From an uncultured Acidobacteriota bacterium (GTDB lineage: Bacteria > Acidobacteriota > Thermoanaerobaculia > UBA5066 > Gp7-AA6): a stretch of DNA of 64,000 bases. Below the pieces are notes generated by a model. It was not told the DNA's origin. It made no database searches and was given only the letters and a program-made list of their open reading frames with translations. The position numbers were made by a program, and so were the translations under genes. Where the stretch lies: positions 41,187-105,186 of the forward strand of contig CAWALG010000030.1 in the NCBI GenBank assembly GCA_963782815.1, in the 5' to 3' direction. This document shows positions 5,525 to 56,050 of the stretch, one piece after another (position 1 is the first letter of the stretch; the number at the start of each line of letters is the position of its first letter).

Positions 5525-5663
5525 GCTGTCTCAGAATACCGCGACGCGGCGGGACCGGCTCGGCCTGCGGGTCCGGGGTCACTCAAGGGCAGTCACGACG
5601 CAGAGCTTGCCCGGTACACCCTCGCCCACACCTCCCGCGAGCCCGATGCTAAGATCGCGGCCA

Positions 5664-6293: not shown

Positions 6294-6331
6294 TCCTGAC
6301 CACGCGCCCGCCCCTCGTCGTCCTCCACGCG

Positions 6332-6830: not shown

Positions 6831-6867
6831 CCGACGCGCCTCACTCCTTCCGATCGGCCCCCAAGAG

Positions 6868-7345
6868 CGGGACGTCGTGGAATGCTGGGCGTTATCGCGA
6901 TGTCGTCCGTCTCGCACGAATGGCTTGATGGCGAGAGGCGGGCGGCCGCAAGGGCCGCCCCTACGGCACGAGGGGAGTCGAGGAGAGTGGTGGCGTGATC
7001 ACGATGTTGTCCGTCTCGCACGAATGGCTTGATGGCGAGAGGCGGGCGGCCGCAAGGGCCGCCCCTACGGCACGGGGGGCACGTCGAGGAGAGTGGTGGC
7101 GTGATCACGATGTTGTCCGTCTCGCACGAATGGCTTGATGGCGAGAGGCGGGCGGCCGCAAGGGCCGCCCCTACGGCACGAGGGGCACGTCGAGGAGAGT
7201 GGTGGCGTGATCACGATGTTGTCCGTCTCGCACGAATGGCTCGATGGCGAGAGGCGGGCGGCCGCAAGGGCCGCCCCTACGGCACGAGGGGCACGTCGAG
7301 GGATGCGGTGGCGCCCTTGTCAACTCGTCCGTCTCGCATTGAATC
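6868..7345. repeat. Tandem array B: about 106-bp unit x about 4.5, opposite polarity to array A, hairpin gggcggcc-gcaag-ggccgccc
   Basis: The landmark gtccgtctcgca occurs at 6905, 7009, 7115, 7221 and 7327 (spacings 104/106/106/106). A degenerate partial unit starts near 6868. The last partial unit abuts the stop of the BNR gene (7344). Confidence 0.95.
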
Positions 7346-10300
7346 AGGGGTCCTCGTCCGGTTCGTCCGGCTCCTCCCGGCCCGGCGCCTCGGGCTCCTT
7401 CACGGTCATGATCTGGACGTAGCCCTTCCCCTTCATCGCGTCGTTGAACGCGGGGACGGCCTTGCCGTAGAAGTCGTCGAACTCCTTGCGCGCGGAGGCG
7501 AGCTGCCCGGAGAGGAGCGCATAGACGTCGAGCTCCGGCTGCGTCGGGGGATAGTCGGAGTTGCCCGAGACGTCGCTGCCGCTGACACCGGACTCGGCCT
7601 GGAGCCAGATGAGCTTCAAGTAGAGCTCGAGCGGGCCGCGGAACGACTTCTGGTCTCCTTCCGCGAGCGTGGGCTGGAGGAGCTTGTCCTCGACGGCGCG
7701 GGCCTTCTTCTCGAGCTCGTCGGCCTGCTCGAAGACGGGCTTGTCGGCCTTGCCCGCCTTGAGCATCCTGCGAAAGTCCTCGAGCTGTTTGCGCGTCCAC
7801 TCGATCTCGTTGATCATCCGGGCGGCCGCGCTGATGTCGTCGTAGATCCCGCGCGAGAAGTTCGCCGAGGCCGCGACGTCGGCGTCGCTTCGGCCCGAGC
7901 GGGGATCCTTCAAGACGGTGAGCGGCCGCGTTCCGATCTCCTTCCCTTCGACCGTGAGCTTGACCGTGTAAGTGCCCGGGGCGACGAGGGGGCCCTTCTT
8001 GGGAACGGTGATGCCGTAATAGAAGACGCCGCGATGGTCCTTGCCGACGAAACGCTTCTCCTCCCAGATGTGCGGATTGCCGGCGGGCGTGGTCCGCATG
8101 CGGACGTCCACCGTCTGTTCGTAGGCGAGGTCCCAGGCGACGCGGTTCAACCCCGCCTTGTTCGTCCCCTTGATCGTCCGGATCTTCTTCCCGGCGGAAT
8201 CCCAGATCGTGATCTCGATCGGGTTCTTCTTCGGCGCGGCGTTCTCGGCCTCGGCGTCGCCCTCCTTCTCGGGAACCTTCAGCGGATCCTTCAGCCAGTA
8301 GTTGATCGCGGCGCCGTAGGGCGGGTTCTGTCCTTGCGCCGCTCCCGCGGGGACGAGGTTGGGCCGCGAGGTGGAGCGGAACCGGTAGGCCGGCCGCGGA
8401 TCGAAGAGATGCGAGGCGGAGGCGCGGACGGCGTCCGTCAACTGCTCGAGCGGAGTCACGTCGTCCAGGATGTAGAAGCCGCGCCCGTAGGTCCCGACGA
8501 CGAGGTCGTGGAAATGCTCCTGGATCGTCATCCAGTAGACCGGAGCGTGCGGGAGCTTGTCTTGCAGCGGCTCCCAGCGCCCGCCGTCGTCGAAGGAGAC
8601 GTAGAGCGCGTTCTCGGTCCCGGCAAAGAGAAGCCCCTTGCGGAAGGGGTCCTCGCGCACGACATGCGCATACGAGAGCGGGCTCTTCGGAATGTTGGAG
8701 GCGATCGCCTTCCAGCTCTTCCCGTAGTCCGCCGTCTTGAAGAGAAAGGGATCGCGGTTGTCCACCTGGTGCAGGTCCACGGCGATGTAGCACGTCCCCG
8801 CGTCGAAGCGGGAGGGCTCGACGCTGCCCACCGTGCCCCTGGGGGGCAGGCCGGGGATTCCGGGTGTGACGTTGGACCAGTGGGCGCCGCCGTCCCTGGT
8901 GACCTGGACCACGCCGTCGTTGGTGCCGGCCCAGATGACGCCCTTCTCGAGCGGCGACTCGGCGATCGAGTAGACGACGCCGGCGTACTCGACGGAGAGG
9001 TTGTCCACGGTCAATCCGCCGGAGTCGCCCATCATGCTCTTGTCGTTGGTCGTCAGGTCCGGGCTGATCGCCTTCCAGGTCTGCCCGCCGTCGGAGGTCG
9101 CGTAGACGTACTGGCTCCCCACGTACACGGTGTTGTGGTCGTGCGGCGAGATCGCGATCGGGAACGTCCAGTTCATGCGGAGCTTGATCTCTCCCGCGTT
9201 GGCGCCCATCGTCCGCTCCGGCCACGGGCTGACGGTGCGCGCCATCCCGGTCTTCGCGTCGAAGCGCTCGACGACCCCGGCGTAGCAGCCGCCCCAGACG
9301 ATGTCGGGATCCACCGGGTCGGGAGTCGCCCAGCCGGTCTCGCAGCCGGCCGTCGAGGTCCATTGCGCCGGGGAGATCCCGCCGGCTCCGGGGACGACGC
9401 TCGGGCCGCGCATCGAGCCGTCGTCCTGCATCTGGCCGTACACGAAGTACGGGATCCGGTTGTCGGTCGTGACGTGGTACATCTGGCCGATCGGCAGCCG
9501 CATCGACGACCACTGCCGGCCGCGCGTCGTCGAGATCAGGACGCCGAGGTCGTTGCCGATCATCATGCGGCGCGGGTCCTTCGGGTCCGCCCACATGTCG
9601 TGGTTGTCGCCGCCCCAGCGGATCTGCTCCGCGGTCTCGCCGCCGTCGTAAGTCGCTCCCATCATGTTGGAGGGGAAATAGACCTCGTTGGCGTTGTCGG
9701 GCATGACGAGCATCCGCGTGTAGTAGTGGGGGCGCTCGTTCAAGAGCCGGCTGTGGTTGACGAGCTTCCACTTTTCCCCGCCGTCGTCGGAGCGCCAGAG
9801 CGACCCGCGCTGCCCCGTCTCGATGAGCGCGTAGACGCGCTGCGAGTCGCTCTGAGCCACGGCGACGGCGATCTTGCCGAGCGGAGGCTCCGGCAGGCCG
9901 TGTCCCGTGATCCGCTTCCAACGTCGTCCCGCCGTCGCGCGAAACGAAGACGCCGCTCCCGGGCCCTCCGCTCTTGCGCCCCCACGTCTTGATGTCGATC
10001 TGCCACGCGCCGGCGAAGAGGGTGCGCGGATTGTTCGGGTCCATCGCCAGGTCGGACACGCCCGTGTTCGCGTCCACGAAGAGGACTCGCTCCCAGGACT
10101 TGCCGCCGTCCATCGTGCGGTAGACGCCACGCTCCTGCTGCGGGCCGTAGCCGGTCCCGATCGCCGCCGCGAAGACGATGTCCGGGTTGCGCGGGTCGAT
10201 CGCGATCCGGGGAATCCGTCCTGTCTTCTCCAGGCCCATGTGCTTCCAGCTCTTCCCGGCGTCGGTGGACTTGTAGATCCCGTTTCCGAGCGAGACGTTC

Positions 10301-12288: not shown

Positions 12289-14435
12289 ATGAAACGCACC
12301 GCCATGGTTCCGCTTGCCGTGATTGCGAGCCTGTTCGCCTCCCTCGGGGTTGCCGCGGCGCGGCAGGCCCCGGCGGCGCCCGCTCCGGCCGCCGGGTCGA
12401 ATCCGTTCTTTGCCGCCAGCCCGCTCCCTTACCAGGCGCCCCCCTTCGACAGGATCAAGGAGAGCGACTATCAGCCGGCGATCGAGGAAGGGATGAAGCG
12501 GCAGCTCGCCGAGATCGACGCGATCGCGAGCAACCCGGAGCCGCCGACCTTCGCCAACACACTGGAGGCCATGGAGCGCACGGGCGAGCTCCTGACGCGC
12601 GTGGCCAAGGTCTTCTTCGGCCTCACCCAGTCCAACACCAGCGAGACGATGCAGAAGATCAAGGCGGAGGTGGCGCCGAAGCTCGCGGCGCACCAGGACG
12701 CCATCTTCCTCAACGCGAAGCTCTTCGCGCGGGTCAAGGCTCTCTACGATCGGCGCGAAACGCTCGGTCTCGATCCGGAATCCCGGTACCTCGTCGAACG
12801 CTTCTGGTTGAACTTCGTCCGCGCCGGCGCGCAGCTCTCCGAGGCCGACAAGACGACCCTTCGCGCGTTGAACCAGGAGGAGGCGAAGCTGACGACCGAG
12901 TTCACGGAAAAGGTGCTGGCCGACACCAACGAGTCCGCGGTCGTTGTCGACGACAGGGGAGAGCTGTCCGGCCTCGGCGAAGGAGGCGTTGCCGCCGCGG
13001 CCGAGAAGGCGAAGGAGCGGAAACTGGCCGGCAAGTGGGTGCTCACCCTCCAGAACACGACGCAGCAGCCCGCGCTCGCCTCCCTGGCGAACCGGGCTCT
13101 TCGCGAGCGTCTGTTCCAGGCCTCGGCGCTGCGTTGCAATCACGGCGGCGGCAACGACACGAAGGCGATCGTCGCCCGCCTCGCGGAGCTTCGGGCGCAG
13201 CGCGCGAAGCTCCTGGGTTACGCCAATTACGCGGCGTTCACGCTGGACGACCAGATGGCGAAGACGCCGCAGAACGCGGAGAAGCTGATGACGGGCCTCG
13301 TGCCGGCGGCGACCGCGAAGGCGCGCGGGGAGGCGGCCCGGATGCAGAAGCTGATCGACGCGGAGAAGGGAGCCTTCCCGCTCGGCGCGGCGGACTGGGA
13401 CTTCTACGCCGAGAAGGTCCGCAAGGCCGAGTACGATCTCGACGAGTCGCAGGTCGCGCCGTACTTCGAGCTCGATCGCGTGCTCCGCGACGGAGTCTTC
13501 TTCGCCGCGAACAAGCTCTACGGCATCACCTTCCAGGAGCGCAAGGACATCCCCGTCTACCAGCCCGATGTGCGCGTCTTCGAGGTGTTCGACGCCGACG
13601 GCAAGTCCCTGGCGCTCTACTACGGCGACTACTTCTCCCGCTCGAACAAGAGCGGCGGCGCCTGGCAGGACAGCTTCGTGGACCAGAGCCATCTCCTCGG
13701 GACGAAGCCGGCGGTCTACAACGTGACGAACTTCACCAGGCCCGCCGCGGGGCAGCCGGCGCTGATCTCCTTCGGCGACGTGACAACGCTCTTCCATGAG
13801 TTCGGGCACGCGCTGCACGCCATGTTCGCGAGCGTCCGGTACCCGACGCTCTTGAACGTGCCGCGCGACTTCGTCGAGTTCCCGTCGCAGATCAACGAGC
13901 ACTGGGCGCTCGAGCCGTCGGTCCTCGCCAACTACGCGAAGCACTACCAGACCGGCAAGCCGATGCCGCAGGCGCTCGTGGACAAGATCAAGAAGTCCCG
14001 CACGTTCAACCAGGGCTACAAGACGACGGAATATCTCGCGTCCGCCCTTCTCGACATGGCCTGGCACGAGCTGCCCGCCGGAGCGCCGAAACAGGACGTC
14101 AACGCCTTCGAGCGCTCATCGCTGCAGCGATTCGAGGTGGAGCTGCCGCAGGTGCCGCCGCGCTACCACACGACCTATTTCTCGCACATCTGGCAGGGCA
14201 GCTACGCGGCCGGCTACTACGCGTACCTCTGGAGCGAGGTCATCGACGACGACGCCTACTACTGGTTCAAGGAGAACGGCGGCATGACCCGCGAGAACGG
14301 AAAGCGCTTCCGCGAGATGATCCTCTCCGCGGCGGCACGCAGGAAGCCGCCGCGCTCTACCGCGCGTTCCGCGGCCGCGACCCGAAGGTCGAGCCCCTGA
14401 TCGAGGAGCGCGGCCTCCAGCCGGCGGGGAAGTAA
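12289..14435 (+). CDS. dcp: peptidyl-dipeptidase Dcp (M3 metallopeptidase), apparent frameshift near 14335
   Basis: ATG at 12289 follows ggaagga. The signal peptide is [24 protein letters not shown]. The HEFGH zinc motif is [10 protein letters not shown]. The tail ...RFREMILS switches frame to ...[30 protein letters not shown], with TAA at 14433-14435. Confidence 0.9.
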
Positions 14436-30595: not shown

Positions 30596-31914
30596 TCATC
30601 CGAGTGACGTGAGATACCGAAGCGCCTTCAAGCCGGGAAGAAAGAAGTAGGCGCCTCCTCTCACGGTCGTGAAGGCCGGAAGACCGGTGATGGTCTTCCG
30701 GATCGGGCGCTTCGGGATCTTGAATTCGAGCGTTCCATCTTGGTTGCCGATGATGGGATCCCGCTCGTTGACGAGCTCGTGGAAGGCCTTGTCGTTGGCC
30801 CACACGTTCTGCGCGAACTCGAACTGGCGGACGAGGCTCGCGCAGATCACGAATGCCGCGATGCCGCGCTCCTTGCCGTCCTCGGGCGCGTCCTCGGGCA
30901 GGGGCGGGCCGTAGGTGGCGCCGCGCCGGATCATGCGGCGGCGGTTCATGTTCGCGCCGGTGTCCCGAGGGTTCATCCGCCGCATGTGGGAGCCGAGCGG
31001 CACGGCGTAGCCGTGCGGGTCCTGCTGCTTGTAGTTGAAGTCATTGTTCCGCTGCGGGTCGGCGCCCAGCGCCGGGTCGTCCTTGTCCGGCGCCAGGACC
31101 AGCGGCGCGCCGCTGCGCCAGCCGGCCCATGAGCTTCGCGGCGACGAGCTCCTGCTCCTCGGGCGTCTGGCCGTGCGTCTTCAGGAAGTCGCGGAACGCG
31201 CCCACGTGCTCCTCCAACCGCCGATACGCCATGAAGCTGCCGTTTCGCGAGAGAAGCTCGGGCTGCGGCTGAAGCAGAGGCGGACCGTTTTCGTCCGGAT
31301 AGCCGAGGATGAACTCGCCCGGCTTCAGCGGCGCGCCGGAGCCGGGCGTGGGCTCCTCGCCCGAGCCTTCGATGACCGGCTGCGACAGCCGGTCGCGGTA
31401 ACCAAAGTGGTCGTGCGCATAATCGAACGGCGGGGTCGCCTCCAGATCGAGCGTCGACAGCACACTCACGCCGTCGCATCGGGCGATGAGCTTCTCGTGC
31501 TCGGCCCGGCTGCGCTCGCGGTCGGCGGCGTCGCGCGCGAAAAGGATCACGATGGCGTGCAGGTCGGGGCTGGCCAGGCCTCCGACCCAGTTGTCGGGAT
31601 GGTTCGCGCCGGTATCGCCGAGGATCTGCGCGCGCGCCACCATGCCTTGCCGGAACTCATCGGGGAACGTCGCCAGGGACGCCTCGTCCACTCCGAGCGC
31701 GCGCAGGCCGTTGCAGGTGAAGGCCACCGTCACCCAGCGACGCTCCGTCTCGACCGATGCGCTGCATGGCGGCGGCGGACTGCACCTTGTCCAGAATCGC
31801 GGCAAGCCACGCGCGTCCGCCTGCCGGGTTCCGGAACGACAGGAACTCGTACCGGCCCGTGAGCGCGGGCGCGCGCGTCAGCAGGATGTGCTGGATGTCG
31901 TCGAAGGCGAGCAC
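30596..31914 (-). CDS. DyP-type peroxidase (locus A; apparent frameshifts near 31750 and 31125)
   Basis: GTG at 31914 gives MLAFDDIQHILLTRAPALTGRYEFLSF. The middle part contains HFGYRDRLSQP (GxxDG-region variant). After ...AAKLMGRW the reading SGAPLVLAPDKDDP...GYAVPLGSHMRRMNPRD holds the proximal His. The sequence also has FEFAQNVW and ends ...FFLPGLKALRYLTSLG*. Confidence 0.85.
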
Positions 31915-32490
31915 CGCTCGCTCACTGCATCTGGTCGAGCATGGTCGAGAACGACGGCCTTCAGCTGCAGCGCCTTCTTGATCTCGTCGGCGCTGACGAA
32001 TGGATACTCGCCGTACTCCAGGAAGCTCGGGCACTGGTGATCGCGGACAAACTTGATGAAGGCCGGCGGGTTCGTCTTCCAGTCCTTGGGGAAGCCCTCG
32101 AGGTTTTCAAAAACGGTGTTGATGCCGAGCTTCGTGAAGAGCGCCACCGCATCCTCGGTGTACTTGTCGAAGTCGGTGTCGAAGATTCCCTGGTACATGA
32201 AATAAGTTTCGCCCTTGATCGGGAACAGCACCCAGCGCAGGTAGTGCAGCTTGAGCACGGCGAGGCAGTCCGGCTGGCCGGCGACCGCCTTTTCGATGTT
32301 CTTGCGCGTATTCGTGGAAGACCGGTTCCCGTCCCGGGATGATCTTCGCGATGATCGTGAAGCCATAGCACGCGGGCGTTTTGGGAAAGATCGGCCCGTA
32401 TCGCCCGTCTTCTTTCTTGAAGAAGCCCTCCTTCGGGATTGCCATCGCGGCTGGCCTGGTCCAATCATTCTGGTTGGGGATGTTTGCCAT
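31878..32490 (-). CDS. uncharacterised DyP-associated protein, single H-Y-L-R-W-V domain (apparent frameshift near 32305; 3' end uncertain, 31878-31927)
   Basis: ATG at 32490 follows aaggagga, giving MANIPNQNDWTRPAAMAIPKEGFFKKEDGRYGPIFPKTPACYGFTIIAKIIPGREPVFHEY. After the frame change it reads RKNIEKAVAGQPDCLAVLKLHYLRWVLFPIKGETYFMYQGIFDTDFDKYTEDAV...FVRDHQCPSFLEYGEYPFVSADEIKKA. Homologous to both halves of 49202..50506. Confidence 0.7.
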
Positions 32491-32593
32491 GTTCCTCCTT
32501 AAATGGGTACGGTCGTGAAGGTTGAACTTTTTAACCGTTGAGCGGCCTGCCGTCAAGCGAAACGTTCGATCGGGCCGGAACATTCGAATCCTC

Positions 32594-44658: not shown

Positions 44659-46907
44659 ATGGTCAGAGCCCGGTTCGGATTGCTCCCCGGCGTCCTTTCT
44701 CTCCTCTTCCTCTCCTCGTCCCGGCCGTCCTCTCGTGCAGGAAAGAGGAGAAGCCGGCGAGTCCGCCGCCGGCCCAGAAGGTCGCGCTGCACGACGAGAA
44801 GATGAAAGAGACGAAGGTGGACGTCTTCCCCGGGATGGACGGCCCCGATCTCGGGCTGACGGAAGACGACATCCGCGGGCGCGTGGTGTGGAACCTCTGG
44901 GTCGGCGACAGCGGCGAGATGTGGGACTTTCTCGCTCAGCACGGCTTCGGCACCGCGGATCTGATCAAGACGATCGACTCGCGCCGCCGCGCCCATCGCT
45001 TCGCGGAGATCGGCATCGTCAACCAGCCGGGATTCCAGGCGGCCGCCAGGCCCGACCCCTACGGCCTGTTCCTCGACGAGCCGAAGCCCGGCGACCCCGA
45101 CGGGCAGATCGATCAGAAGATCGACGAGTACACCTACGGCCGCTCCTCCGGCGTGGTCGGCCTGCGCATCTCCAACAACAAGAGGTTCGACTCCGCCGCG
45201 AAGGCCGAATGGATGAAACACGTCGCGGCCGACGGCGTCAACCACGACTATTACGAGAACCCGGACTACTTCAACGATCCGAAGCTCGTCCGCCCCTACG
45301 TCGTCGGCATGGCCTGCGCGTTCTGCCACGTGGGTCCCGACCCGGTCCGGCCGCCGGCCGACCCGGAGAATCCGAAGTGGGAGAACCTGAACGACTACGT
45401 CGGCGCGCAGTACTTCAAGGTCTGGGAGGTCTTCGTCCCGCGCCTCCCCGGCGGCGCGCAGCAGGAAGACAGCTTCGTCTGGCAGCTCATCCACTCGAAC
45501 CCGCAGGGGACGCTCGACACGTCCTTCATCGCCACCGACTACCTGAACAATCCCGGCACGATGAACGGCGTGTACAGCCTGAAGGCGCGCCTCTCGCGGG
45601 CGCAGAGCGAGCACATCACCGGCGGGGCTCTCAACCTGCACGGCGTGACGGATCCCATGGACGTCCCGCGCGTGCTCAAGCAGGGCGACGACTCGGTCGG
45701 GTTCACGGCGGCCTTGAGCCGCGTCTACGTCAACATCGGCGAGGCCTGGCCGGAATGGCAGAAGCATTTCCGGCCGCTCATCGGCGGACCGGACAGCAAG
45801 GGACGTCAGAGCCCCGTCCCCGTCGACACGATGCAGCGGACTTCCGCGTACTGGAACTGGAGCGAGGAGCGCTCGCCTTACCTCGCGGGGTATCTGATCA
45901 AGGTCGCCAGGCCGCTGCTGCTCAAGGACGCGCCGGGCGGAGCGCAGTACCTGACGAAGGACCCGCAGGTGCTCGAGCGCGGGAAGGCCGTCTTCGCCGA
46001 GAACTGCGCGGGCTGCCACTCGAGCAAGCAGCCCCCGGAGGGCACCGACCAGCAGAAGGCGGTGGAGTGGTTCCGCCAGCAGGTGGCGAGCGACCCGAGC
46101 TTCTTCACCGACAACTTCCTCGCCGACGAGCGCCGCCACAAGGTGACCGACATCGGCACCAATGCCACTCGCGCGGCGGGCACCAACGCCACGCGCGGCC
46201 ACATCTGGGACAACTTCTCGTCGGAGACGTACAAGACTCTGCTTCCGGTGGGAACGTTCCAGGTCGAAAACCCGTGGGAGAACAACGCCAGGTCGATCCC
46301 GGTCACCATCCCGCTCGCCGGAGAGGAGCAGGGTCCGGGGTACTACCGTCCGCCCTCCCTGATCAGCCTCTGGTCGAGCGCGCCGTTCCTTCACAACAAC
46401 AGCGTCGGCGAGGACTTCGGCGATCCGTCCGTCGCCGGCCGCATGCGCGCGTTCCAGGACGGGATCGAAAGGATGTTGTTGGTCAAGCCGCGGGCCAACA
46501 AGGTCTGGCGGACCACCAGGACGAGCTACATCAACATTCCAATGGCCTACGTCCCGGATCTGCTGCAGAAGATGATCGTCGATCCGCATCTCCTCGACGG
46601 CAAGGGCAACCTCCGGATCGGGCCCATCCCGGCGGGCACGCCGATCAACCTGCTGGCGAACACGAATCTCGACGCTCCTCTCGCCGATTTCACGGAGCTG
46701 ATGCTGCACCTCGTCCCCGCCCTCGTCGACATCCGCATGAAGAACATGAACGATCAACAGGCGAAGGAACGCTTCCAGCGGGTCGTGCCGTACCTGATCA
46801 AAGTGAACAAGTGTCCGGACTTCATCGAGGACAAGGGTCACCTCTTCGGCACGAACCTGCCCCTGGCCGACAGGAAGGCGCTGATCGAGCTTCTGAAGAC
46901 GTTCTGA
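44659..46907 (+). CDS. di-haem c-type cytochrome lipoprotein (peroxidase/oxidase-like), apparent frameshift near 44705
   Basis: ATG at 44659 follows ggagaaggag, giving MVRARFGLLPGVLSLLFL, joined to ..LLVPAVLSC (lipobox). There are two CxxCH sites (MACAFCHVG, NCAGCHSS). RPPSLISLWSSAPFLHNNSVG resembles the distal-haem region of di-haem peroxidase-like enzymes. Confidence 0.75.
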
Positions 46908-46922
46908 GGCGAGGAGGGGCCG

Positions 46923-48803
46923 ATCGAAACGCCGGGCGAGAGCTACGAGTACATCGTCGTCGGGTCGGGAGCCGGAGGAGGACCCCTTGCGGCCAACCTC
47001 GCGCGGGCCGGACGGAGCGTGCTGCTCCTCGAGGCGGGGAGCGATCCGGAGACCTATCTCTATCAGGTTCCGTGTTTTCACCCCTCCTCGACGGAGGAGA
47101 AGGCGATGGCGTGGAACTACTTCGTTCACCACTACAGCAAGGACGAAGAGCGGGACGAGAAATACCGGGCAGCCCAGGGAGGAGTCCTGTACCCGCGCGC
47201 CGGCACCCTGGGCGGCTGCACCGCGCACAACGCGATGATCACCGTGGTCCCGCACGACAGCGACTGGGACTCGATCGCCGGATTGACCGGCGACCGCTCG
47301 TGGCGCGCGGCGAACATGCGCCGGTATTTTCAGCGCGTGGAGCGGTGCGCGTACGCGTCGCCGCCGGAGGCTGGCCACGGCTCCTCGGGATGGCTCACCG
47401 TCAGCAAGGTCGATCCCTCGATGGCCATCGGCGACATGCAGGTCGCGCACACGGTCATCGACGCGGCGCTGCAATCCGCGCGGGGCGGCTTCTTCGGCTT
47501 CCTGAAGAGGGTCTTCCGGTTCCTCGAGACGGGCGACGACCCCAACGACGCGCGCAACGGAGCCGCCAACGAGGGGGTCGTCACCACCATCCCGCTTGCG
47601 ACATCGGGCGGACGGCGCAACGGCACGCGCGAGTTCATCCGCCGCGTGCAGAAGGAGTGTCCCGGCCGGCTGACGGTTCGGATGAACAGCCTCGCCACGC
47701 GCGTGATCCTGGACGACGAGCAGCGCGCCGCCGGCGTCGAGTGCCTCGAAGGACGGCACCTCTACCGCGCCGACCCGGATTGGTCCGCCGCGGCTGCCGG
47801 CGCGACGAGGCGGTATTCCTGCAGCCGGGAGGTCATCCTCGCCGGCGGCGCGTTCAACACTCCGCAGCTCCTGATGCTCTCCGGCATCGGCCCGAGGGGG
47901 CATCTGGCCGAGAAGGGCATTGCGTGCCGCGTCGACCGCCCCGGCGTCGGCCGCAACCTGCAGGACCGCTACGAGGTTGCCGTCGTCTCCACGATGAAGC
48001 GGGACTTCGAGATGCTCTCGGGCGCGACGTTCCAGCCGCCGGCGGAAGGGGAGGAAGGCGACCCCTGTTTCCGCGAGTGGCTGGATGGAGAGGGCATCTA
48101 CACCTCCAACGGCGCCATCGCCGCGGTGATCAGGAAATCCGACCGGAGGAAGCGCGATCCCGACCTTTTTCTCTTCGGCGTGCCGGGGAAGTTCACCGGC
48201 TACTACCCCGGATACTCCGCCGATCTCGAGCGATCGAAGAACTGCCTCACCTGGGCGATCATCAAGGGGCACACCAACAACACCGGCGGCACGGTCCGGC
48301 TCCGGTCGAACGACCCGCGCGACACGCCCGAAGTTCATTTTCACTACTTCGAGGAAGGGACCGATCCGGGCGGCGAGGACCTCCGGTCCGTGGTGAAGGC
48401 GATCGAATTCGTGCGGGCCATGAACGATCGCAACGAGACCATCCGGGAGGAGAAGGTGCCGGGCAGGCACCGGCAGGGCAAAGAGCTCGAGAAGTGGATT
48501 GCCGACAACGCCTGGGGACATCATGCGTCGTGCAGCTGCCGTATCGGGCGGCCCGACGACCCGATGGCGGTCGTCGACAGCCGCTTTCGCGTGATCGGCG
48601 CGAGGGGTTTGCGGGTGGTGGACGCGTCGGTCTTCCCGAGAATTCCGGGGTTCTTCATCGTCAGCGCGATTTACATGGTCAGCGAGAAGGCGGCCGACGT
48701 CATCCTGGCCGACGCCGCCGGGGAAACGGAAGAAGAGAGAGGAGGAAGGAACCATGGCTTACGAAGTGGCGCAGCTTCTGAAAATGTCTCAAGCCCAGCT
48801 TGA
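46923..48803 (+). CDS. GMC-family FAD oxidoreductase (start codon unresolved)
   Basis: [23 protein letters not shown] (GxGxxG) starts at 46944. The C-terminal GMC signature is ...[42 protein letters not shown]. The frame is continuous with the upstream TGA (46905-46907) and has no ATG/GTG/TTG/CTG before the Rossmann motif. ATC at 46923 lies 3-6 nt after gaggagggg. Confidence 0.8.
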
Positions 48804-49185
48804 CGAGCTCTTTACCGGGAGCCCGGCCGGCGAGATACCGGACGGGGAGGCGCGGGGAACGGCCATCGTCGCCCCGGGCACCACCTACACCGCCGAGATC
48901 GCGCAGTTCATCAATCACTTCGCCTGGCAAGGCAAGACCTTCGATGCGAAGCACGGCTCCCTGCGAAACCGGATCCTCCCCTTCGGCTTGAACGCGATCA
49001 TCGCCAGGGTCTACAAGGGGGAGAGCTGGCTCGATCACAAGGAGTGCATCGTCCTCGATTATTCCGAGACCTCGGTCGTCGCGCAGTGGATCCGCGACGA
49101 AATCCGGCAGATCGGCCCGCGCATCTACCTGGGGAAGGTCTACTGGAACAAGAGCCGCCTGATCGACTTCGCGATCGAGTTCTGA
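48754..49185 (+). CDS. hypothetical protein (143 aa)
   Basis: Intact ORF. ATG follows aggaggaagg. HFAWQGKTF...IVLDYSETSVVAQWIRDEIRQIGPRIYLGKVYW is faintly reminiscent of GXWXG/DUF4334-type proteins, with low certainty. Confidence 0.6.
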   Translation: MAYEVAQLLKMSQAQLDELFTGSPAGEIPDGEARGTAIVAPGTTYTAEIAQFINHFAWQGKTFDAKHGSLRNRILPFGLNAIIARVYKGESWLDHKECIVLDYSETSVVAQWIRDEIRQIGPRIYLGKVYWNKSRLIDFAIEF

Positions 49186-49201
49186 GCGGCCGCGGCCGGC
49201 C

Positions 49202-50506
49202 ATGACGCCTCAGTCGAGCTTCACGATCGTTTCGCCGATCCTCCCGGACCGGGTGGACGGCCTGCGCGGGCTCCTCGCGTCCATGAACCACCGCCCGGGA
49301 GTGGCCAATCCGCAAAACGATCTCGTCCCCTTCGGCCGTCTCGACCGGCTCCATTTCGCCCGGCTCGTGATCCTCGACGACAAGACCCGGAGCGACATCG
49401 AGGTCTATGGTCTGCCGCCGGCGGACTTCGGTCTTTCCCTCGCATTTCTCGCGGACTTCGACGGGCCGGCCGGCGAGTTCCTCGCGGACATGGTCCGGCT
49501 CTCCGGCGACGGCCTGCGCCGCATCTTCGCGCATTGCGAGGGCTTCCATCCGGACACCGACCTGCTGCGCTGGATGCGGGACCGCGACCACTCGCCGGCC
49601 GGCGCTTATGTGAACTGGCTGGGGCGCACGGCGCGGCAGATCCGCGAGGAGGCCGCGCTGCGGGATGCCCTCGTGACGCGCCTGCGCGAGGAGGCCTCCG
49701 CGGCCGCGGGCGGCGACCCTCAGCGGGTGCGGGACGATCTGGTGCGGTTCGCGCGTGAGGAGGTGGAGGCGGGCAGGCTCACCCTGACGGCTCCGGAGCC
49801 CACGCCGCTCCCCTGGCGTCTGCGCAACCTGTCTCACGCCATCGGAGTGCCCTTCCTGCTGCTGCTCCTGACGCCATTCCTGCTGCTGTACCTCCCGCTG
49901 TTCCTCTACCAGCTCCGCCGCCGGGAGACGCGGGACCCCGAGATCGTTCCGGCGCCGGATTCCGGTCTCGCCTCGAGGCTGGCGGACCTCGAAGATCACG
50001 GCGTGACGAACCAGTTCAGCGCGCTCGGGACCTTGAAGCCCGGTCTCTTCCGCCGCTCGACCGTGGTTTTCTTCCTCTGGGTCCTGGACTACGCGGCCCG
50101 GCACATCTACAACCGCGGCCACTTGACGCGGGTCAGCACGATCCATTTCGCGCGCTGGGTCTTTCTGGACGGCAAGAAGCGCCTTCTCTTCGCGAGCAAC
50201 TACGACGGAAGCCTGGAGAGTTACATGGACGACTTCATCAACAAGGTCGGCTGGGGCTTGAACCTGGTGTTCAGCAACGGCGTGGGGTACCCGCGGACGG
50301 ACTGGCTCGTCCTGGCGGGCGCGAAGGACGAGCAGAAGTTCAAGCGATTCATCCGGCGGCACGAGCTGCCGACGGAGGTCTGGTACAACCCTCATCCCGG
50401 GCTGACGGCGATCGACCTGGATCGAAATACCCGCATCCGGCGGGGACTCGAGCAGCCGGCGCCGGCGCAAGCGGAGATCCGCGAGTGGCTGGGGCTGCTG
50501 TGCTAG
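49202..50506 (+). CDS. uncharacterised DyP-associated membrane protein with two H-F-A-R-[LW]-V domains
   Basis: Intact 434-aa ORF. Domain 1 is FTIVSPILPDRV...LDRLHFARLVILDD...LAFLADFDGPAGEFLADM. A central hydrophobic segment is VPFLLLLLTPFLLLYLPLFLY. Domain 2 is VSTIHFARWVFLDGKKRLLFASNYDGSLESYMDDFINKVG...FIRRHELPTEVWYNPHPGLTAIDL. It sits 13 nt upstream of DyP. Confidence 0.75.
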   Translation: MTPQSSFTIVSPILPDRVDGLRGLLASMNHRPGVANPQNDLVPFGRLDRLHFARLVILDDKTRSDIEVYGLPPADFGLSLAFLADFDGPAGEFLADMVRLSGDGLRRIFAHCEGFHPDTDLLRWMRDRDHSPAGAYVNWLGRTARQIREEAALRDALVTRLREEASAAAGGDPQRVRDDLVRFAREEVEAGRLTLTAPEPTPLPWRLRNLSHAIGVPFLLLLLTPFLLLYLPLFLYQLRRRETRDPEIVPAPDSGLASRLADLEDHGVTNQFSALGTLKPGLFRRSTVVFFLWVLDYAARHIYNRGHLTRVSTIHFARWVFLDGKKRLLFASNYDGSLESYMDDFINKVGWGLNLVFSNGVGYPRTDWLVLAGAKDEQKFKRFIRRHELPTEVWYNPHPGLTAIDLDRNTRIRRGLEQPAPAQAEIREWLGLLC

Positions 50507-50519
50507 GAGCGGACTGACC

Positions 50520-52021
50520 ATGGCCGCCTCGATCGACTACGGCGACATCCAGGGGCTCGTGCGCTTCGGCCACGGCGGCATGACGGAGGCGTGTTTTCTC
50601 CTGGCCGCGGTGCGGAGTCCCGCGGCCGCGCGCCGGTGGCTGGCGTCGGCCCCCGTGACGAGCGCCGTCACGACGGAGCCGCCGCCGCAACGCGCGATGC
50701 AGGTCGCGTTCACGTGGGAGGGCCTGCGGGCGCTCGGGCTCGGGGAGCGCGCGCCAGGGATTCTCCGCCGAGTTCCTCTCCGGGATGGCCGGCGAGGAGA
50801 GCCGCTCCCGCCGCCTCGGCGACGTTGGACCGAGCGCTCCCGCGGGATGGCGATGGGGCGGTCCCGGAAGGGTTCCGCACGCGGTCATCCCGCTCTACGC
50901 GAAGCGCGGGGACCTCGAGAGCTGGAAGCGGACGATCCAGACCGGCGAATGGGGAGCGGCGTTTGGCGAGATCGAGTGCCTGCCCACGTCGGATCTGGAC
51001 GGAGTCGAGCCGTTCGGATTCCGGGACGGCATCAGCCAGCCGGCGCTCGACTGGAGCCGGGAGCGCGAGGCGCCGGGCGAGGAGATCGAGTACGGCAACC
51101 TCCTGGCCCTGGGGGAATTCCTGCTCGGCTATCCGAACGAATACGGGAAATACACGGCGCGTCCGCTTCTCGCGGAGGCGGACGACCCGCGCCGGATGCT
51201 GCCGCCGGCCGAAGACGATCCCTCGCGGCGGGACCTGGGGCGCAATGGGACGTACCTCGTCCTTCGTGAGCTGGAGCAGGACGTGTCCGGCTTCTGGCGG
51301 TTCCTGGACGCGCGGGCGGGCGGCGACGCGGCGGCGAGGCGGCGCCTGGCCGAGGCGATGGTCGGCCGCACGATGGAAGGGGAGCCCCTGGTGCCGGCGT
51401 CGGCCCGCCGGATCGCCGGCGTCGGATCGGGCCCGGAGGACGATCGCCTGAACCGCTTCACCTACGACGCCGACGGCGAAGGGCTGCGGTGCCCGGTGGG
51501 CGCGCACATCCGCCGCGCCAATCCCCGCAACGCCGACCTCCCCGCCGGCGCGACGGGTTTCTTCTCCCGGCTGCTTCGGATCGCCGGGTTTGGCGGAAAG
51601 GGATTTCGCGGCGACCTCATTGCCTCCGCCCGCTTCCACCGCGTCTTGCGCCGGGGACGCGAGTACGGTCCGCCGCTCTCCCCGGAAGAGGCGCTCCTTC
51701 CCGGGCGATCGGACTACGGGCCGCGGGGACTGCACTTCCTCTGCCTGAACGCCAACATCGCGCGGCAGTTCGAGTTCGTGCAGAACGCCTGGATGATGGG
51801 CACGAAGTTCTCGGGGCTCTCCGACGAGGGCGATCCGCTCGTGGGGAGCCGGGAAGGAATTGCGGGATGCCTCGCCACGGACACGTTCTCCATTCCCGGG
51901 AAGGGGGAGGTCACGCGGCGGATCACGGGCCTCCCGCGGTTCGTGAACGTGCGCGGCGGAGCCTATTTCTTCCTCCCGAGCCTGAGCGCCCTGCGCTATC
52001 TCGCGAGTCTGGGCGTGCTAG
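50520..52021 (+). CDS. DyP-type peroxidase (locus B; apparent frameshift near 50765; stop not in frame as assembled)
   Basis: MAASIDYGDIQGLVRFGHG is in ORF 50520..51269. GVEPFGFRDGISQP (GxxDG), CPVGAHIRRANPRN (proximal His), FEFVQNAW and ...FFLPSLSALRYLASLGV are in ORF 50785..53436. That frame runs on as an antisense shadow. TAG at 52019-52021 is +1 out of frame, so a terminal indel is likely. Confidence 0.85.
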
Positions 52022-53214
52022 TCGAAGACCTCGTCTCCGGTGGGCTCGCGGTGGGGCGTGTCGTTCATGGACTGCCTCAGCCGGGAGAGCTCCTCGTAGA
52101 TCCGGCGCCGGGCCCTGTTCTGGTTGCCGAGCGGACGGTGCTCGGGCAGGCAGTGCCACGGATTGAGGGAGAGGTTGTGCGCGAAGGCGAGCTGGGCGGC
52201 CGAGTCGAACTTCTGTCGCGGGAGGACGAGGGTCGCGGCCGGGACGGGAGGCGAGAGCGACTCGGGCCACCGCACCGAGGCATTCTCCACCGGCATGCGC
52301 CGCGGGTCCGTCTGGACCTGCACGAGGAAGTCGAACTCCGCGTCTTGCCGCGCGAGGGCCGCCGCCATCGCTTCGCGCAGATAGTTGTCGGAAGGGCGCA
52401 AGGGGAGGCGGGGGATCCGGGTGCGCGTCCTCGACCGGGGCCGCAGGGAGAACTGCATCGCCTGCCCTTCCCCGAGGAGAAAAGGGACGCAGCTCCAGTA
52501 GCTCGTCTCGAGCGGGCTCGTCTGGGTCCTCGCCCACAGCCCCTGCATCAGCCCGTCGAGGAGATGGGAGTCGAAGGGATTGAGGAAATAGAAAAGGGGC
52601 GTCCCTCGCCGGATCCAGGACTGCAGCTTCGCGTTCTCCCGGACGTTGGGAGTGGTGAACGTGGGCGCGCTGATGCCGGTGAAGTCCTGGGTGAAGCGCT
52701 CGTCGTCGAGGAGCTTGCGGCCCGGCACGCCCATCAACTTGATGCCGATGCTCAGGATGCCCACGTCGTCGATGTCCGGAGGGCTGGCCGGTCCGGGACC
52801 GCCGAAGCGAACCCAGGCGCGCAACCGCCGGGGCTCCGCGAAGACGCCCTGCCGCAGCTGCCGCGGGAGATCGTCTCTCACGACAAACTCCCCGCGGACC
52901 ACGCCGTGAGTCTTCGTGTTTCCCGCGCGCTCGAATCGGCCGGGAGCGTAGTGGGAGCGCATGTACGCGGACATCTCGGCGATGATGGCGTCGAGGAACG
53001 CCTCTTCCCCGGGGAACGGCCGTTCCCCGGCGACCGGCAAGACCTCTTCTCCGCCGCGCCGGCGCAGGAGCGCCTGGACGAGCCCGGCGATCGGCTCTCG
53101 AAACAGGGCGTCGAAGAAGGGGCGGAAGAACGGGTCGAACCGGCGCTCCAGGCCGACGAGGCGAAGGACGGCGTCGTGGAACCGCTGGAGCAGAGCGGGT
53201 TCCCCCTCGCTCAC
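52018..53214 (-). CDS. catalase-related haem protein (mini-catalase/allene-oxide-synthase-like family)
   Basis: Intact 398-aa ORF. FERAGNTKTHGVVRGEF occupies the distal His region position. The C-terminal NRARRRIYEELSRLR is a proximal R..x..Y-type haem tyrosinate motif. There is no NADPH or large-subunit domain. Confidence 0.7.
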   Translation of the reverse strand: MSEGEPALLQRFHDAVLRLVGLERRFDPFFRPFFDALFREPIAGLVQALLRRRGGEEVLPVAGERPFPGEEAFLDAIIAEMSAYMRSHYAPGRFERAGNTKTHGVVRGEFVVRDDLPRQLRQGVFAEPRRLRAWVRFGGPGPASPPDIDDVGILSIGIKLMGVPGRKLLDDERFTQDFTGISAPTFTTPNVRENAKLQSWIRRGTPLFYFLNPFDSHLLDGLMQGLWARTQTSPLETSYWSCVPFLLGEGQAMQFSLRPRSRTRTRIPRLPLRPSDNYLREAMAAALARQDAEFDFLVQVQTDPRRMPVENASVRWPESLSPPVPAATLVLPRQKFDSAAQLAFAHNLSLNPWHCLPEHRPLGNQNRARRRIYEELSRLRQSMNDTPHREPTGDEVFD

Positions 53215-53618
53215 TTGGGCCGGGGCTCGCCGGCTTTCCTGCCGATGCCCGTCCGCAGGAAGAGGACGAACAGGACCACGAACGCGCCGTCCACCGCCGC
53301 CGGCAGCAGGGCGAGGGGCCGGGCAATCCCGTTGGCGGCGCGCAGCGAGATCGCCACGACGTCGAAGAGCTTGGCGAGGATCCCGAGCCAGACGAGGCCG
53401 CGGTTGCGGGTGACGTCGAGAGAGACGATCCAGTAGCCGATCCCGATCAGCAGGACGGCGAAGCCAAAGTCCCCCCAGAAACGGAGCGTGCTTTCGGGAG
53501 GTTCACCCAGGTAGGCGAGCCGGTAACTCCAGGAGGAGGCGAAGAAGATCGGGCCGCCGATGAGGAAGTTGAACGCCGCCGCGGCCAGGAACATCCTCGA
53601 CCATCGCTTCTCGCTCAT
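53211..53618 (-). CDS. small integral membrane protein (4 predicted TM)
   Basis: Intact 135-aa ORF. Its stop overlaps the start of the catalase-related gene (53211-53214). Hydrophobic segments include FLAAAAFNFLIGGPIFF, FGFAVLLIGIGYWIV, LVWLGILAKLFDVVAI and AVDGAFVVLFVLFL. Confidence 0.7.
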   Translation of the reverse strand: MSEKRWSRMFLAAAAFNFLIGGPIFFASSWSYRLAYLGEPPESTLRFWGDFGFAVLLIGIGYWIVSLDVTRNRGLVWLGILAKLFDVVAISLRAANGIARPLALLPAAVDGAFVVLFVLFLRTGIGRKAGEPRPK

Positions 53619-53687: not shown

Positions 53688-55376
53688 TCAGGTCCACGGC
53701 CGGGCTTCGACGCGCAGGGTGGCATGGATGCCGGGGTGCGTGTCCCTGGCGACCTTGATGTCGAACGCGATGCCGGTGCCGTCCGGCAAGGCGCGCGTCG
53801 CGGCGGGCTTTGAAGCGGCGTTGGGCGTCTCGCTCTGGTATCCGTATTTTACCGTCCAGCCGCCGAGCGCCTTGGGATCCGGCGTGGCCTCCACGAGAAT
53901 CAGCTCGCGGTAGATGTAGCCCCCTTCGAAGTGGCGCTTGAGCCAGAGGACTCCGTCGATCTCGTAGTCCGGAACGAGCACGGCCAGATCGAAGGCGAAC
54001 GCGACGGAACCTCCCCCGACCATGCTCTTCCTCGGAATCGAGGAAAACCGAGAAGAGATGGGGGCTGCGGGTCCGGTCCGGCTTGCGCTCGGCGCCCACT
54101 TTCGGAAACAACTCGTCATAAGTCCGGTGGATCGCGGAATTCTCCTTGACGGTCCGGCGGTGCATCTGCCACTGGTGGCCGCGCACGCTGGCCACGATCT
54201 CGAACTGGTAGGAGGCGCGGACTTCCGAGTCCTTGCTCCTCTTCTCCTCGACGTCGTCGGGAAGCATGACCTCGTCGATGTCGAGGATTCCATCCACCCG
54301 CAGGGAGCCGAAGAGGAAGCGCGTGAGGTTCTGATACCCCTCCTCGGAATTCACGATTCCGTAGTGCCCCGAGTGGCTCCGGTGGGCGAACGCCCGGGGT
54401 GAGCTGATGTCCCTCCCCTGGGCGTCGGCGCCGTGCGTCGTCGCGTTCTCGATGCGCACGAGGCCGTCGCTGTCCTCTCCCGCCGCCCACGCCGAGATGC
54501 CGTGCGCGACGAGGTAATCGGCCGGGTTGCTGCCGACGAGGTTGAAGACGCGCTCGGGAGGGAAATTAGCGACGATGGAGACGTCGAGATCGTCCGAGGA
54601 GGCCGCGGCGTCGTGCGGAAGCGCGAGAGATAGCCCGCCATCCTCTGCCGATTGAAATTGTTCGCGTCGCCGAACGTCGCCCATCCCGGCACGTTGCGGA
54701 CAATGCGCAGGTCGATGCCGTTGTGCGGGGTCGCGTAGGTAAATAACTTGTCGACCGCGCGGCGAGCTTCGGCGCTTCCGATCCCGGGATTCTGAAGGAA
54801 CGCGCGGCAGACGAGCCCACCCATGGAGTGGGCGACCAGATAGACGCGGAAGTCCTCCGGGGCGACTTCGTTGTCGAGCGGGTCGCCCGTGATGGGATCT
54901 TTTCCCTGCCGGCAGACCAGCGCCTTCAATCTCAGGATCAGGTTGTTGAGGCCCTGCGCGAAGTGCTCGATGGGAGGGGTCTCGCCGGTGCCGAACGACT
55001 CCGACGCCTCGTCGTAATAGCGGAAGATGACGAGGGACTGATAGGGGAGCGCGATATCGGGGCGCATCGGCTTCGTCGGGTCCTCGGGGTCGGGCGCCGT
55101 GAGGTCGTCGCCGTCCACGTAAACGTCGTCGTAGCGCCGGCTGCTCCTCTGGATCCCGTCCGGAGTCGTGATCCACACGATCTCGTCCTTCAACCGGACG
55201 AGAGGCGACTCGAAGAAGAACTTGCGCATCCTGCCGTCCCAGACCTGCCGCGTCTTCGTCGAGCCCAGGTTGAATCCCATGTACGGGTCCGCCACCGTCT
55301 CCTCGATCTCCGTCTGCGAGACGGCAAAACCGCGAACGTAGACGATGGGATGGTAGGGATGATGTTTGTTGTTCAT
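53688..55376 (-). CDS. alpha/beta-hydrolase (PGAP1/lipase-like, GxSxG = HSMGG) with extra C-terminal domain (apparent frameshifts near 54620 and 54030)
   Basis: MNNKHHPYHPIVYVRGF...VYLVAHSMGGLVCRAF...LFTYATPHNGIDL is in ORF 54351..56012. ...HRSHSGHYGIVNSEEGYQNLTRFLFG... is in ORF 53665..55176. The C-terminus ...VAFAFDLAVLVPDYEIDGVLWLKRHFEGGYIYRE...LRVEARPWT* is in ORF 53688..54293. Confidence 0.75.
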
Positions 55377-55399
55377 CGAACGCACCTTTCCCCGCGAGC

Positions 55400-55963
55400 T
55401 CATTTCGGCCAGAGCCAGCCGAAGACTCCCGCGGTCAGGAGGCCGAAGATCAGGCCGTCGATATTGAGTTTCACTGTCGTGACCCAGGAGCGGTGGTACC
55501 AGATGGTGTTCTGCCAGAGGGCGAGCGAATAGCCGATGAACGCGGTGCACCCCGCGAAGCGGAAGACCGAGAGATAGTGCGCGCCGGGCTGCAGCGCGCG
55601 CCCCGCGATGTAGGCGGCGAAGATGCCGACCACGACGCAGTAGAGGAACCACTGGACGAGGTTCTTCGCCATCGAGGGGGGGCCGCTCGGGAAGACGGTC
55701 ATGAGGCCGTCCGGTCCCTTGCTCCACTTCTCGCGAAAGGCGGGGTCCTTCATGGCTTTCATGCTGTCGGGCTTTGGGAAGCAATAGTCCGCCGGCGGGA
55801 CGCCGAGCTTCCGGAGGGCGTCCATCACCCCGTCTTCGTTCGGGAGCTTTCTGAAGTCGTTCCGGTGGTAAGGGAGCACCATGTGGATGATCGAGCTGGC
55901 GACGAACACGATGACCGCGGAGAGAAGGATCGGGAGCCACAGTGACATCACGGGAACCACCAT
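55400..55963 (-). CDS. conserved integral membrane protein of unknown function
   Basis: Intact 187-aa ORF lying 23 nt upstream of the hydrolase gene. It has TM segments at both ends ([54 protein letters not shown]). Confidence 0.7.
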
Positions 55964-56050
55964 CGCAACCTCCTTCTGCGCCTCGCCTGGCGAAGCGACC
56001 GAACGATATCAAGCTCTCAAACGACGATCCGAAGAAGACGGGTCATCCCG

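Follow-up and report, generated by a model that had tools for sequence, protein, structure and literature searches.

The stretch of DNA analysed here (the window: 64,000 nucleotides (nt), positions 41,187 to 105,186 of contig CAWALG010000030.1, assembly GCA_963782815.1) comes from an uncultured Acidobacteriota bacterium of the Thermoanaerobaculia, and carries between positions 44659 and 53618 a cluster of genes for haem and flavin redox proteins. The evidence below indicates that it holds a single copy of an oxidative module of six genes, which is widespread and probably horizontally mobile and is composed of a di-haem c lipoprotein, a GMC-family oxidoreductase, a protein of 143 amino acids (aa) designated p143, a protein with two copies of a domain marked by the motif HFAR (double-HFAR), a DyP-type peroxidase and a catalase-fold haemoprotein. 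The genes of the cluster, and one small neighbour, are as follows.

44659–46907, plus strand: di-haem c lipoprotein gene; about 750 aa, start uncertain
46923–48803, plus strand: gene for a GMC-family oxidoreductase using flavin adenine dinucleotide; probable start ATC 46923, no signal peptide
48754–49185, plus strand: p143 gene; soluble, no signal peptide, no known family
49202–50506, plus strand: double-HFAR protein gene; 434 aa, two homologous alpha+beta domains
50520–52021, plus strand: DyP-type haem peroxidase gene; about 499 aa, long class C/D (V) type
52018–53214, minus strand: catalase-fold haemoprotein (mini-catalase) gene; 398 aa, assigned from an AlphaFold 2 (AF2) model and Foldseek
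53211–53618, minus strand: four-helix membrane protein gene; 135 aa, assigned from hydropathy

The open reading frame (ORF) listing and direct reading of the DNA placed all seven ORFs where an earlier note on this sequence had put them. The junctions it described are also correct, but its coordinates are valid only if three single-base frame changes, one in the signal peptide of the di-haem protein and two in DyP, are ignored. The GMC and p143 genes overlap by 50 nt (GMC stop, 48803; p143 start, 48754), and gaps of 16 and 13 nt separate, respectively, p143 from the double-HFAR gene (49185 to 49202) and the latter from the DyP gene (50506 to 50520). The plus-strand genes converge on a minus-strand unit of two genes, with the palindrome CTAG at 52018–52021 being common to both facing stop codons. 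Within this unit, the catalase-fold gene and the 135-aa gene overlap by 4 nt and are translationally coupled in this genome.

Conservation of the cluster across genomes

The synteny sample comprised one genome per species, giving 80 loci with flanks of up to 10 kb, and presence was counted by tblastn with the window proteins in the 57 loci from other genomes that had full 10-kb flanks. The proposal that these genes are a functional unit was strongly supported by synteny: far from being neighbours only in this genome, they lie together in at least seven phyla. The double-HFAR and DyP genes were present in all 57 full-flank loci, p143 in 55, the catalase-fold gene in 51, the di-haem gene in 49 and the GMC gene in 43, with p143, HFAR and DyP occurring without GMC in 14 loci. 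We found 31 distinct gene arrangements, in which the sole constant order was p143, HFAR, DyP; the catalase-fold gene occasionally lies between p143 and HFAR, and p143 directly follows GMC in nearly all GMC-bearing loci. The contexts of three double-HFAR homologues likewise contained the same neighbours as the window.

The carriers are mostly soil bacteria. The 80 loci come from Acidobacteriota, Methylomirabilota, Desulfobacterota/Thermodesulfobacteriota, Binatia, Planctomycetota and Verrucomicrobiota, as well as from Alpha-, Beta- and Gammaproteobacteria, and cultured carriers include Paraburkholderia sacchari, P. caffeinitolerans, Paracidobacterium acidisoli and Acidobacteriaceae KBS 89. The four-helix membrane protein, previously counted as part of the cluster, occurs near it in a single locus out of 80 (L040, Thermoanaerobaculia) and was not retained as a member, and the epimerase gene upstream of the cluster in the window was found in none.

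Within the host phylum, the double-HFAR gene was detected in 2 of 201 sampled genomes, and in none of nine genus-mates of the host. Because of this patchy distribution, the module was probably acquired horizontally. The G+C content of the cluster matches that of its flanks here, despite its likely horizontal acquisition.

The p143, double-HFAR and DyP proteins

No match to p143 was found in Pfam, NCBIfam or the PDB, profile search included; there are at least 8000 homologous clusters, all of them close relatives labelled 'hypothetical'. The double-HFAR protein has more than 6488 homologues at 63–73% identity, which are unnamed and none of which has a Pfam domain. The motif occurs twice (H51-F-A-R and H315-F-A-R-W), is invariant in 24 homologues, and lies in two domains, between which runs a single hydrophobic segment some 30 aa long (residues 209–238). 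The structural model shows a ferredoxin-like N-domain and a long central helix, with low confidence for the C-domain. A profile of the C-domain, searched against 1.84 billion representatives, retrieved 2947 proteins (649 at E ≤ 1e-30), most of them two-domain proteins of about 430 aa; both of their halves match the C-domain profile, confirming an internal duplication. Foldseek comparison of the model returned nothing significant, the best matches being ABM/TcmI-type alpha+beta barrels at E 0.15. We rejected the idea that HFAR is a divergent DyP, for which hhalign gave a probability of 0.4%. Relatives of the C-domain occur on about 50 plasmid records. Among the metagenome representatives, P0320 carries an Exo_endo_phos (EEP) domain fused N-terminally to the double-HFAR protein, and in P0305 the stretch separating the two HFAR domains has grown into a large membrane region of many helices.

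Motifs and structure matches both uphold the assignment of the peroxidase to the DyP family. It contains the catalytic Asp (FGFRDGISQP), His (GAHIRRANPR) and Arg (RFHRVLRRGREYG), and these motifs are kept in 20 of 20 full-length homologues aligned. The C-terminal fragment from the window matched TIGR01413 at E 2.4e-17, with 63 bits, which is below the curated cut-off of 100.5, and the intact homologue from L014 matched 8re3 (E 3.6e-38) and 19 further DyP chains, including DyP2 (4g2c) and AnaPX (5c2i). The cluster DyP shares its fold and its Asp, Arg and His with the long class C/D (V) enzymes (Amycolatopsis DyP2, Anabaena AnaPX and 8re3), and differs from them in the stretch from the proximal His to the distal Arg, where about 30 residues are inserted. 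Unlike characterised DyPs, it is obligatorily coupled or fused to HFAR and p143, an arrangement for which our literature searches found no report.

Coupling is evident from both gene spacing and natural fusions. The gap from HFAR to DyP has a median of 12 nt (80 of 80 loci) and that from p143 to HFAR a median of 15 nt. One homologue is a p143–HFAR fusion (P0247) and five are HFAR–DyP fusions (P0283, P0284, P0331, P0357 and P0294). The largest fusions, of 1423–1443 aa, are encoded on plasmids of Novosphingobium aromaticivorans DSM 12444 and Pararhizobium qamdonense, where a cytochrome P450 precedes the double-HFAR and DyP parts:

4814–9145 of locus L092: P450–HFAR–DyP fusion, N. aromaticivorans
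4877–9148 of locus L093: P450–HFAR–DyP fusion, P. qamdonense

In these giant fusions, the P450-like part spans approximately residues 1–435, the double HFAR 438–901 and DyP 929–1414; they lack a reductase domain and are annotated as 'Dyp-type peroxidase domain-containing' or 'cytochrome P450'. Given the short gaps and the natural fusions, we take p143, the double-HFAR protein and DyP to form one physical complex, in which HFAR is predicted to be both the membrane anchor and the partner of DyP.

HFAR domains also appear to be general partners of DyPs, since a single-domain HFAR gene lies directly upstream of other DyP genes in five of six further loci, four from relatives and one from this genome. 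This second pair in the window (30600–32583, minus strand), situated 17 kb upstream of the cluster, consists of a single-domain HFAR gene followed by the gene for a different DyP, which is 39% identical to the cluster DyP over its C-terminal half. Both genes of the pair are split over several frames, and the same arrangement recurs in the loci of four relatives (L002, L003, L005 and L007).

The catalase-fold haemoprotein

The 398-aa protein had no Pfam match and, as a single sequence, no match in the PDB; a profile of 31 homologues placed coral allene oxide synthase (cAOS, 1u5u) first, at E 0.018. Its AF2 model (pLDDT 84.6, pTM 0.88) matched 3e4y (E 5e-13, TM-target 0.68) and 1u5u (2.8e-12) ahead of true catalases in Foldseek, where more than 100 catalases were found below 1e-3. 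The assignment of the catalase core fold is sound, and the earlier description of this protein as catalase-related, of the type that acts on fatty-acid hydroperoxides, is confirmed at the level of fold (Foldseek 3e4y/3e4w, 1u5u).

The best Foldseek matches (5e-13 to 3e-11) were thus cAOS (1u5u/3dy5) and the 33-kDa protein of Mycobacterium avium ssp. paratuberculosis (3e4w/3e4y), a mini-catalase that we take to be a peroxidase using organic hydroperoxides. The 398-aa protein has in common with both a catalase core devoid of C-terminal domains and the Arg-x3-Tyr ligand motif, its proximal R369 and Y373 being invariant in 31 sequences. It differs from them in that sequence similarity is marginal (the profile value given above, and no match to Pfam Catalase), in a long N-terminal helix and, according to the alignment, in having GNTKT for the distal His; unlike coral AOS, it has no lipoxygenase fused to it. 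Both the HMMER alignment with 1u5u and the spacing to the 'RF' strand place an invariant G98-N99-T100-K101-T102 at the distal position, with N99/T100 aligned to the His itself, while the nearby His103 varies among homologues (H/Y/Q). The distal His (His67 of cAOS, His75 of catalase) is needed by cAOS and by catalases. Judging from these residues, the 398-aa protein constitutes a new subfamily, the chemistry of which need not equal that of AOS.

The di-haem c lipoprotein

Two haem-binding motifs lie 230 residues apart in the di-haem protein (CAFCH, residue 222; CAGCH, residue 452). The MauG-type motif PFLHNNSVG follows at residue 578, and every homologue carries either a lipobox or a signal anchor. 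The start of the gene is uncertain. ATG 44659 has a good, well-spaced Shine-Dalgarno sequence (AGGAG) and encodes a signal-peptide-like MVRARFGLLPGVLSLLFL, in a frame that differs from that of the rest of the ORF; the latter is open from GTG 44652, and its frame includes the lipobox Cys at 44736–38. Translation would start, therefore, either at ATG 44659, with one frame change near 44700–44720, or at the in-frame GTG 44652.

The protein matched Pfam RoxA-like_Cyt-c and NF040606, 'di-heme cytochrome c peroxidase' (E 1.7e-12), although its 47 bits fall short of the cut-off of 150; NF040606 had no match in any of 14 control genomes. A profile of 24 homologues searched against the PDB reached RoxA (4b2n) only at E 0.42, which is not significant, and we did not accept the protein as a clear member of the RoxA/FadCCP branch. 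Its sequence suggests instead a remote member of the CCP/MauG/RoxA-type superfamily. The earlier view of an exported di-haem c protein stands as regards export. A role as plain electron carrier is not supported for this large protein of the CCP/MauG/RoxA type.

The rubber oxygenase RoxA and the Pseudomonas aeruginosa fatty-acid di-haem cytochrome c peroxidases PA2077/PA2078 are large exported di-haem c proteins, in which 199–245 residues separate the two CXXCH motifs and which also contain a MauG-type motif, P-[YF]-[LF]-H-N-x-S-V; enzymes of this RoxA/FadCCP branch do not reduce H2O2 but oxygenate unsaturated lipids, and PA2077/PA2078 act as an oleate-diol synthase (PMC4496055). The cluster protein resembles them in CXXCH spacing, MauG-type motif and export signal, and differs in being a lipoprotein, 100–200 residues longer, as well as in the lack of a significant match to RoxA.

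The GMC oxidoreductase

The GMC assignment proved correct, with scores over the cut-off for both Pfam domains (PF00732, GMC_oxred_N, 71.5 bits against 23; PF05199, GMC_oxred_C, 90.8 bits against 24.6). The gene is in the same frame as the preceding di-haem TGA (46905–07), and the Rossmann motif GSGAGGG occupies residues 19–25 of the frame that follows this stop, with no ATG, GTG or TTG upstream of the motif. The codon ATC 46923, located 15 nt past the di-haem stop and preceded by GGAGG at 46913–17, coincides with the Met position of homologues; it represents either a base error or a rare use of ATC as start. Locus L032 has the same in-frame layout of di-haem and GMC genes, with Met at that position. 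An apparent di-haem–GMC fusion in L020 was discarded as an artefact of ORF extension, since the two genes differ in frame and have an ordinary stop and start codon; a fusion by TGA read-through in the window is, therefore, unsupported.

The closest solved relative is choline oxidase (E 4.6e-46), with fatty-acid photodecarboxylase at E 4e-32. The first catalytic His is present, and the position of choline oxidase Asn510 aligns with Phe in a comparison of sequences alone, so the second catalytic position may be atypical.

The main alternative to the lipid pathway proposed below is an intracellular couple, which transfers the idea of the earlier note to the inside of the cell. GMC would oxidise an alcohol and release H2O2, p143 would dock GMC on HFAR–DyP so that DyP receives the peroxide directly, DyP would oxidise a soluble aromatic, humic-derived or biosynthetic substrate, and the catalase-fold protein would remove stray peroxide. 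The position of p143 directly after GMC, the p143–HFAR fusion, the complete peroxidase active site of DyP and the nearest solved GMC relatives, which are H2O2-forming oxidases such as choline oxidase, are all in its favour. Nevertheless, we consider such a couple unlikely: the core occurs without GMC in 14 of the 57 full-flank loci, so that GMC is not essential, the catalase-fold protein lacks the distal His required for catalase activity, and the couple leaves unexplained the membrane anchor, the di-haem partner, and the epoxide hydrolase and phospholipase genes (see below).

Frame changes and assembly quality

The DyP gene is not a single uninterrupted frame in the window: it reads in three frames (50520–50756, 50758–52017 and the stop TAG at 52019–21), with +1 frame changes near 50750–57 and at 52015–19. 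Homologues are uninterrupted, at 495–510 aa, and two intact ones align across both breaks and end within 1–2 residues of 52014. Single-base frame changes affect many genes of the window and genome, and gene calls from this genome need care. The second HFAR–DyP pair and the lipase gene next to the cluster are broken across frames like the DyP gene, and the genome is estimated as 56.7% complete for 4.06 Mb in 41 contigs, as compared with 94–97% for genus-mates of similar size. Because other genes of the window are also split and completeness is low for the size, the frame breaks are likeliest to be assembly indels, of the kind seen in indel-rich long-read assemblies. A heuristic for frame switches based on third-position G+C (GC3) yielded 10 further candidates in the window, missed the known breaks and was not relied upon.

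Frame changes at three places in two genes, together with the lack of a canonical start in GMC, would also be seen if this copy were a decaying remnant with real frame mutations and pseudogenes. We find this improbable: single-base frame changes aside, the proteins are 59–68% identical to their homologues with all catalytic residues intact, unrelated neighbour genes are broken likewise, and the low completeness despite large size and few contigs is typical of an indel-rich long-read assembly.

Cellular location

Cellular location was assessed by N-terminal hydropathy and a scan for Tat motifs in about 50–70 homologues per protein. GMC, p143, DyP and the catalase-fold protein showed neither a hydrophobic N-terminus nor a Tat motif (52 homologues for GMC and 67 for DyP), the di-haem protein being the only one of the cluster with an export signal. 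In the giant fusions, the hydrophobic region of HFAR forms two helices, a topology that would put both HFAR domains, with the DyP and P450 fused to them, on the same side of the membrane. From the sequences, we favour a complex attached to the membrane from the cytoplasmic side, together with one periplasmic lipoprotein.

Fungi and bacteria alike employ members of the GMC and DyP families to oxidise lignin, and the carriers are mostly soil bacteria; the cluster could accordingly be seen as a bacterial counterpart of the fungal pairing of GMC oxidase and peroxidase, targeting lignin or other extracellular polymers. The earlier note had drawn this analogy, which does not hold up against the lack of Sec or Tat signals in the GMC, DyP, p143 and catalase-fold families, or against the fusion or coupling of DyP to a partner that carries a membrane segment. 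With an export signal only in the di-haem protein, extracellular lignin attack is unlikely, and we give this explanation very little credence.

Accessory genes and a possible lipid substrate

A gene for an epoxide-hydrolase-like alpha/beta-hydrolase lies inside the cluster in about 14 of the 80 loci, and the best PDB matches of this protein are exclusively epoxide hydrolases (E 4e-30). It adjoins the catalase-fold gene in several phyla (L012, L018, L022-24, L057 and L078). A Tle1-like phospholipase gene (PF09994, E 1e-79) is a neighbour in seven loci, all from Acidobacteriaceae, and is directly 3' of DyP in the three that were checked (L036, L056 and L059; about 12900–14000). Between 5 and 13 of the 80 loci contain an animal-haem-peroxidase gene (PF03098), which in L026 adjoins the catalase-fold gene. 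We rejected the idea that it replaces missing di-haem and GMC genes, as this occurs in only one of eight such loci. Neither the window nor the genome contains an An_peroxidase homologue, and lipoxygenases were not searched for. Ordinary class-I P450 monooxygenases gave the best matches to the P450 domain of the giant fusions, and the interpretation of this domain as a CYP74-like hydroperoxide enzyme was discarded. In the window, the cluster is directly flanked by a gene for a PGAP1-like alpha/beta hydrolase with the lipase motif HSMGG (53688–56012, minus strand), which apparently extends across three frames and is not conserved in other loci; its presence fits a lipid substrate.

The accessory genes, together with the mini-catalase/AOS-like fold and the RoxA/FadCCP-like di-haem protein, lead us to propose, tentatively, that the cluster oxidises a membrane lipid or fatty acid by a route with (hydro)peroxide intermediates; argued by analogy, this is the most economical reading, and a plausible one that falls short of being probable. 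The hydrophobic segment of HFAR would hold the DyP complex at the cytoplasmic face of the inner membrane, and the substrate would be a fatty acid or else a membrane lipid that is hydrophobic or unsaturated. After priming by a peroxide, maybe H2O2 from GMC, DyP would oxidise or oxygenate this substrate, and the Tyr-ligated catalase-fold protein would rearrange or cleave the resulting hydroperoxide, a role that elsewhere may be taken by the N-terminal P450 fused to HFAR–DyP. Alternatively, GMC might oxidise a hydroxyl product. On the periplasmic side, the di-haem lipoprotein may carry out an oxygenation of the RoxA/FadCCP type.

Several observations weigh against a lipid pathway. The case for lipids draws on accessory genes that a minority of loci carry and on what remote relatives catalyse, and the di-haem family matches RoxA only at the non-significant value given above. 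The catalase-fold protein, as aligned, lacks the distal His that cAOS and catalases need, the P450 of the giant fusions resembles class-I monooxygenases and not CYP74-type enzymes, and a COX-like dioxygenase (An_peroxidase) is absent from window and genome, where no search for lipoxygenases was made. In addition, HFAR pairs with other types of DyP and may be a generic accessory, silent about substrate, and two of the genes are out of frame in this assembly.

The same lipid-related evidence is consistent with repair or detoxification of membrane lipid peroxides, with DyP/HFAR and the catalase-fold protein reducing or decomposing lipid hydroperoxides without oxylipin production. The cluster is widespread in aerobic soil bacteria, and the best structural match of its catalase-fold protein is the mycobacterial peroxidase for organic hydroperoxides mentioned above. 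We see this as distinctly unlikely, because a conserved GMC and a periplasmic di-haem protein of oxygenase type would be unexpected in pure detoxification, and the rare, patchy occurrence (2 of 201 genomes of the phylum) is better suited to an accessory metabolic trait than to a housekeeping defence.

The oxidation of lipids through hydroperoxides can be given a more specific form, which we put forward as a rather doubtful possibility: p143, HFAR and DyP would constitute a three-part, membrane-anchored haem machine, with DyP as lipid oxygenase and an interchangeable hydroperoxide-converting partner, either the His-less catalase-fold protein or a fused P450. HFAR would then be a new haem- or lipid-handling alpha+beta domain, acting as a general partner of DyPs.

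Discussion

The components of the cluster belong to known superfamilies, but the six-gene assembly, its two unannotated families and the His-less subfamily of catalase-fold proteins are undescribed. In full-text literature searches, we found no description of the cluster or of the proteins that partner DyP.

Partial precedents exist for a haem oxygenase working with a second haem enzyme. Nostoc punctiforme has a linoleate 10S-dioxygenase and a separately encoded, catalase-related 10S-hydroperoxide lyase, as Brash et al. (2014) are cited in PMC13049297. This pair resembles the cluster in L026, where the gene for a haem oxygenase (animal-haem-peroxidase, COX-like) stands beside a small catalase-fold gene. 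The window, by comparison, is devoid of a COX-like dioxygenase, its constant partner being DyP with two undescribed proteins; its catalase-fold protein lacks the distal His, and four more genes are conserved. Fungal dioxygenase–P450 fusions, such as linoleate diol synthases and Ppo, join a haem peroxidase-type domain to a reductase-independent P450 (PMC13049297). Like them, the P450–HFAR–DyP proteins have two haem domains per chain and no reductase domain; conversely, their peroxidase is DyP-fold instead of COX-fold, the order of domains is reversed and the P450 is class-I-like. Characterised oxylipin tandems combine a LOX or COX-like enzyme with a converter, whereas An_peroxidase was not found here and occurs in only 5–13 of the 80 related loci.

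The cluster gives one large clade of DyPs a fixed genetic and physical context, and links it to a catalase-fold protein, a GMC flavoprotein and a RoxA/MauG-like di-haem protein. It also brings together two families, p143 and HFAR, that have no Pfam model despite thousands of homologues in soil metagenomes. To our knowledge, the physiological role of most bacterial DyPs is still unclear. If the module does act on lipid hydroperoxides, bacteria would have a further route for oxygenating lipids, both new and widespread, which might serve in signalling, in membrane remodelling or in defence, and biocatalysis would gain new enzymes of interest. And if DyP itself were the lipid oxygenase, the module would define a new and phylogenetically broad oxylipin-type pathway, a bacterial counterpart of the logic of COX and linoleate diol synthases, and DyPs would gain a physiological role.

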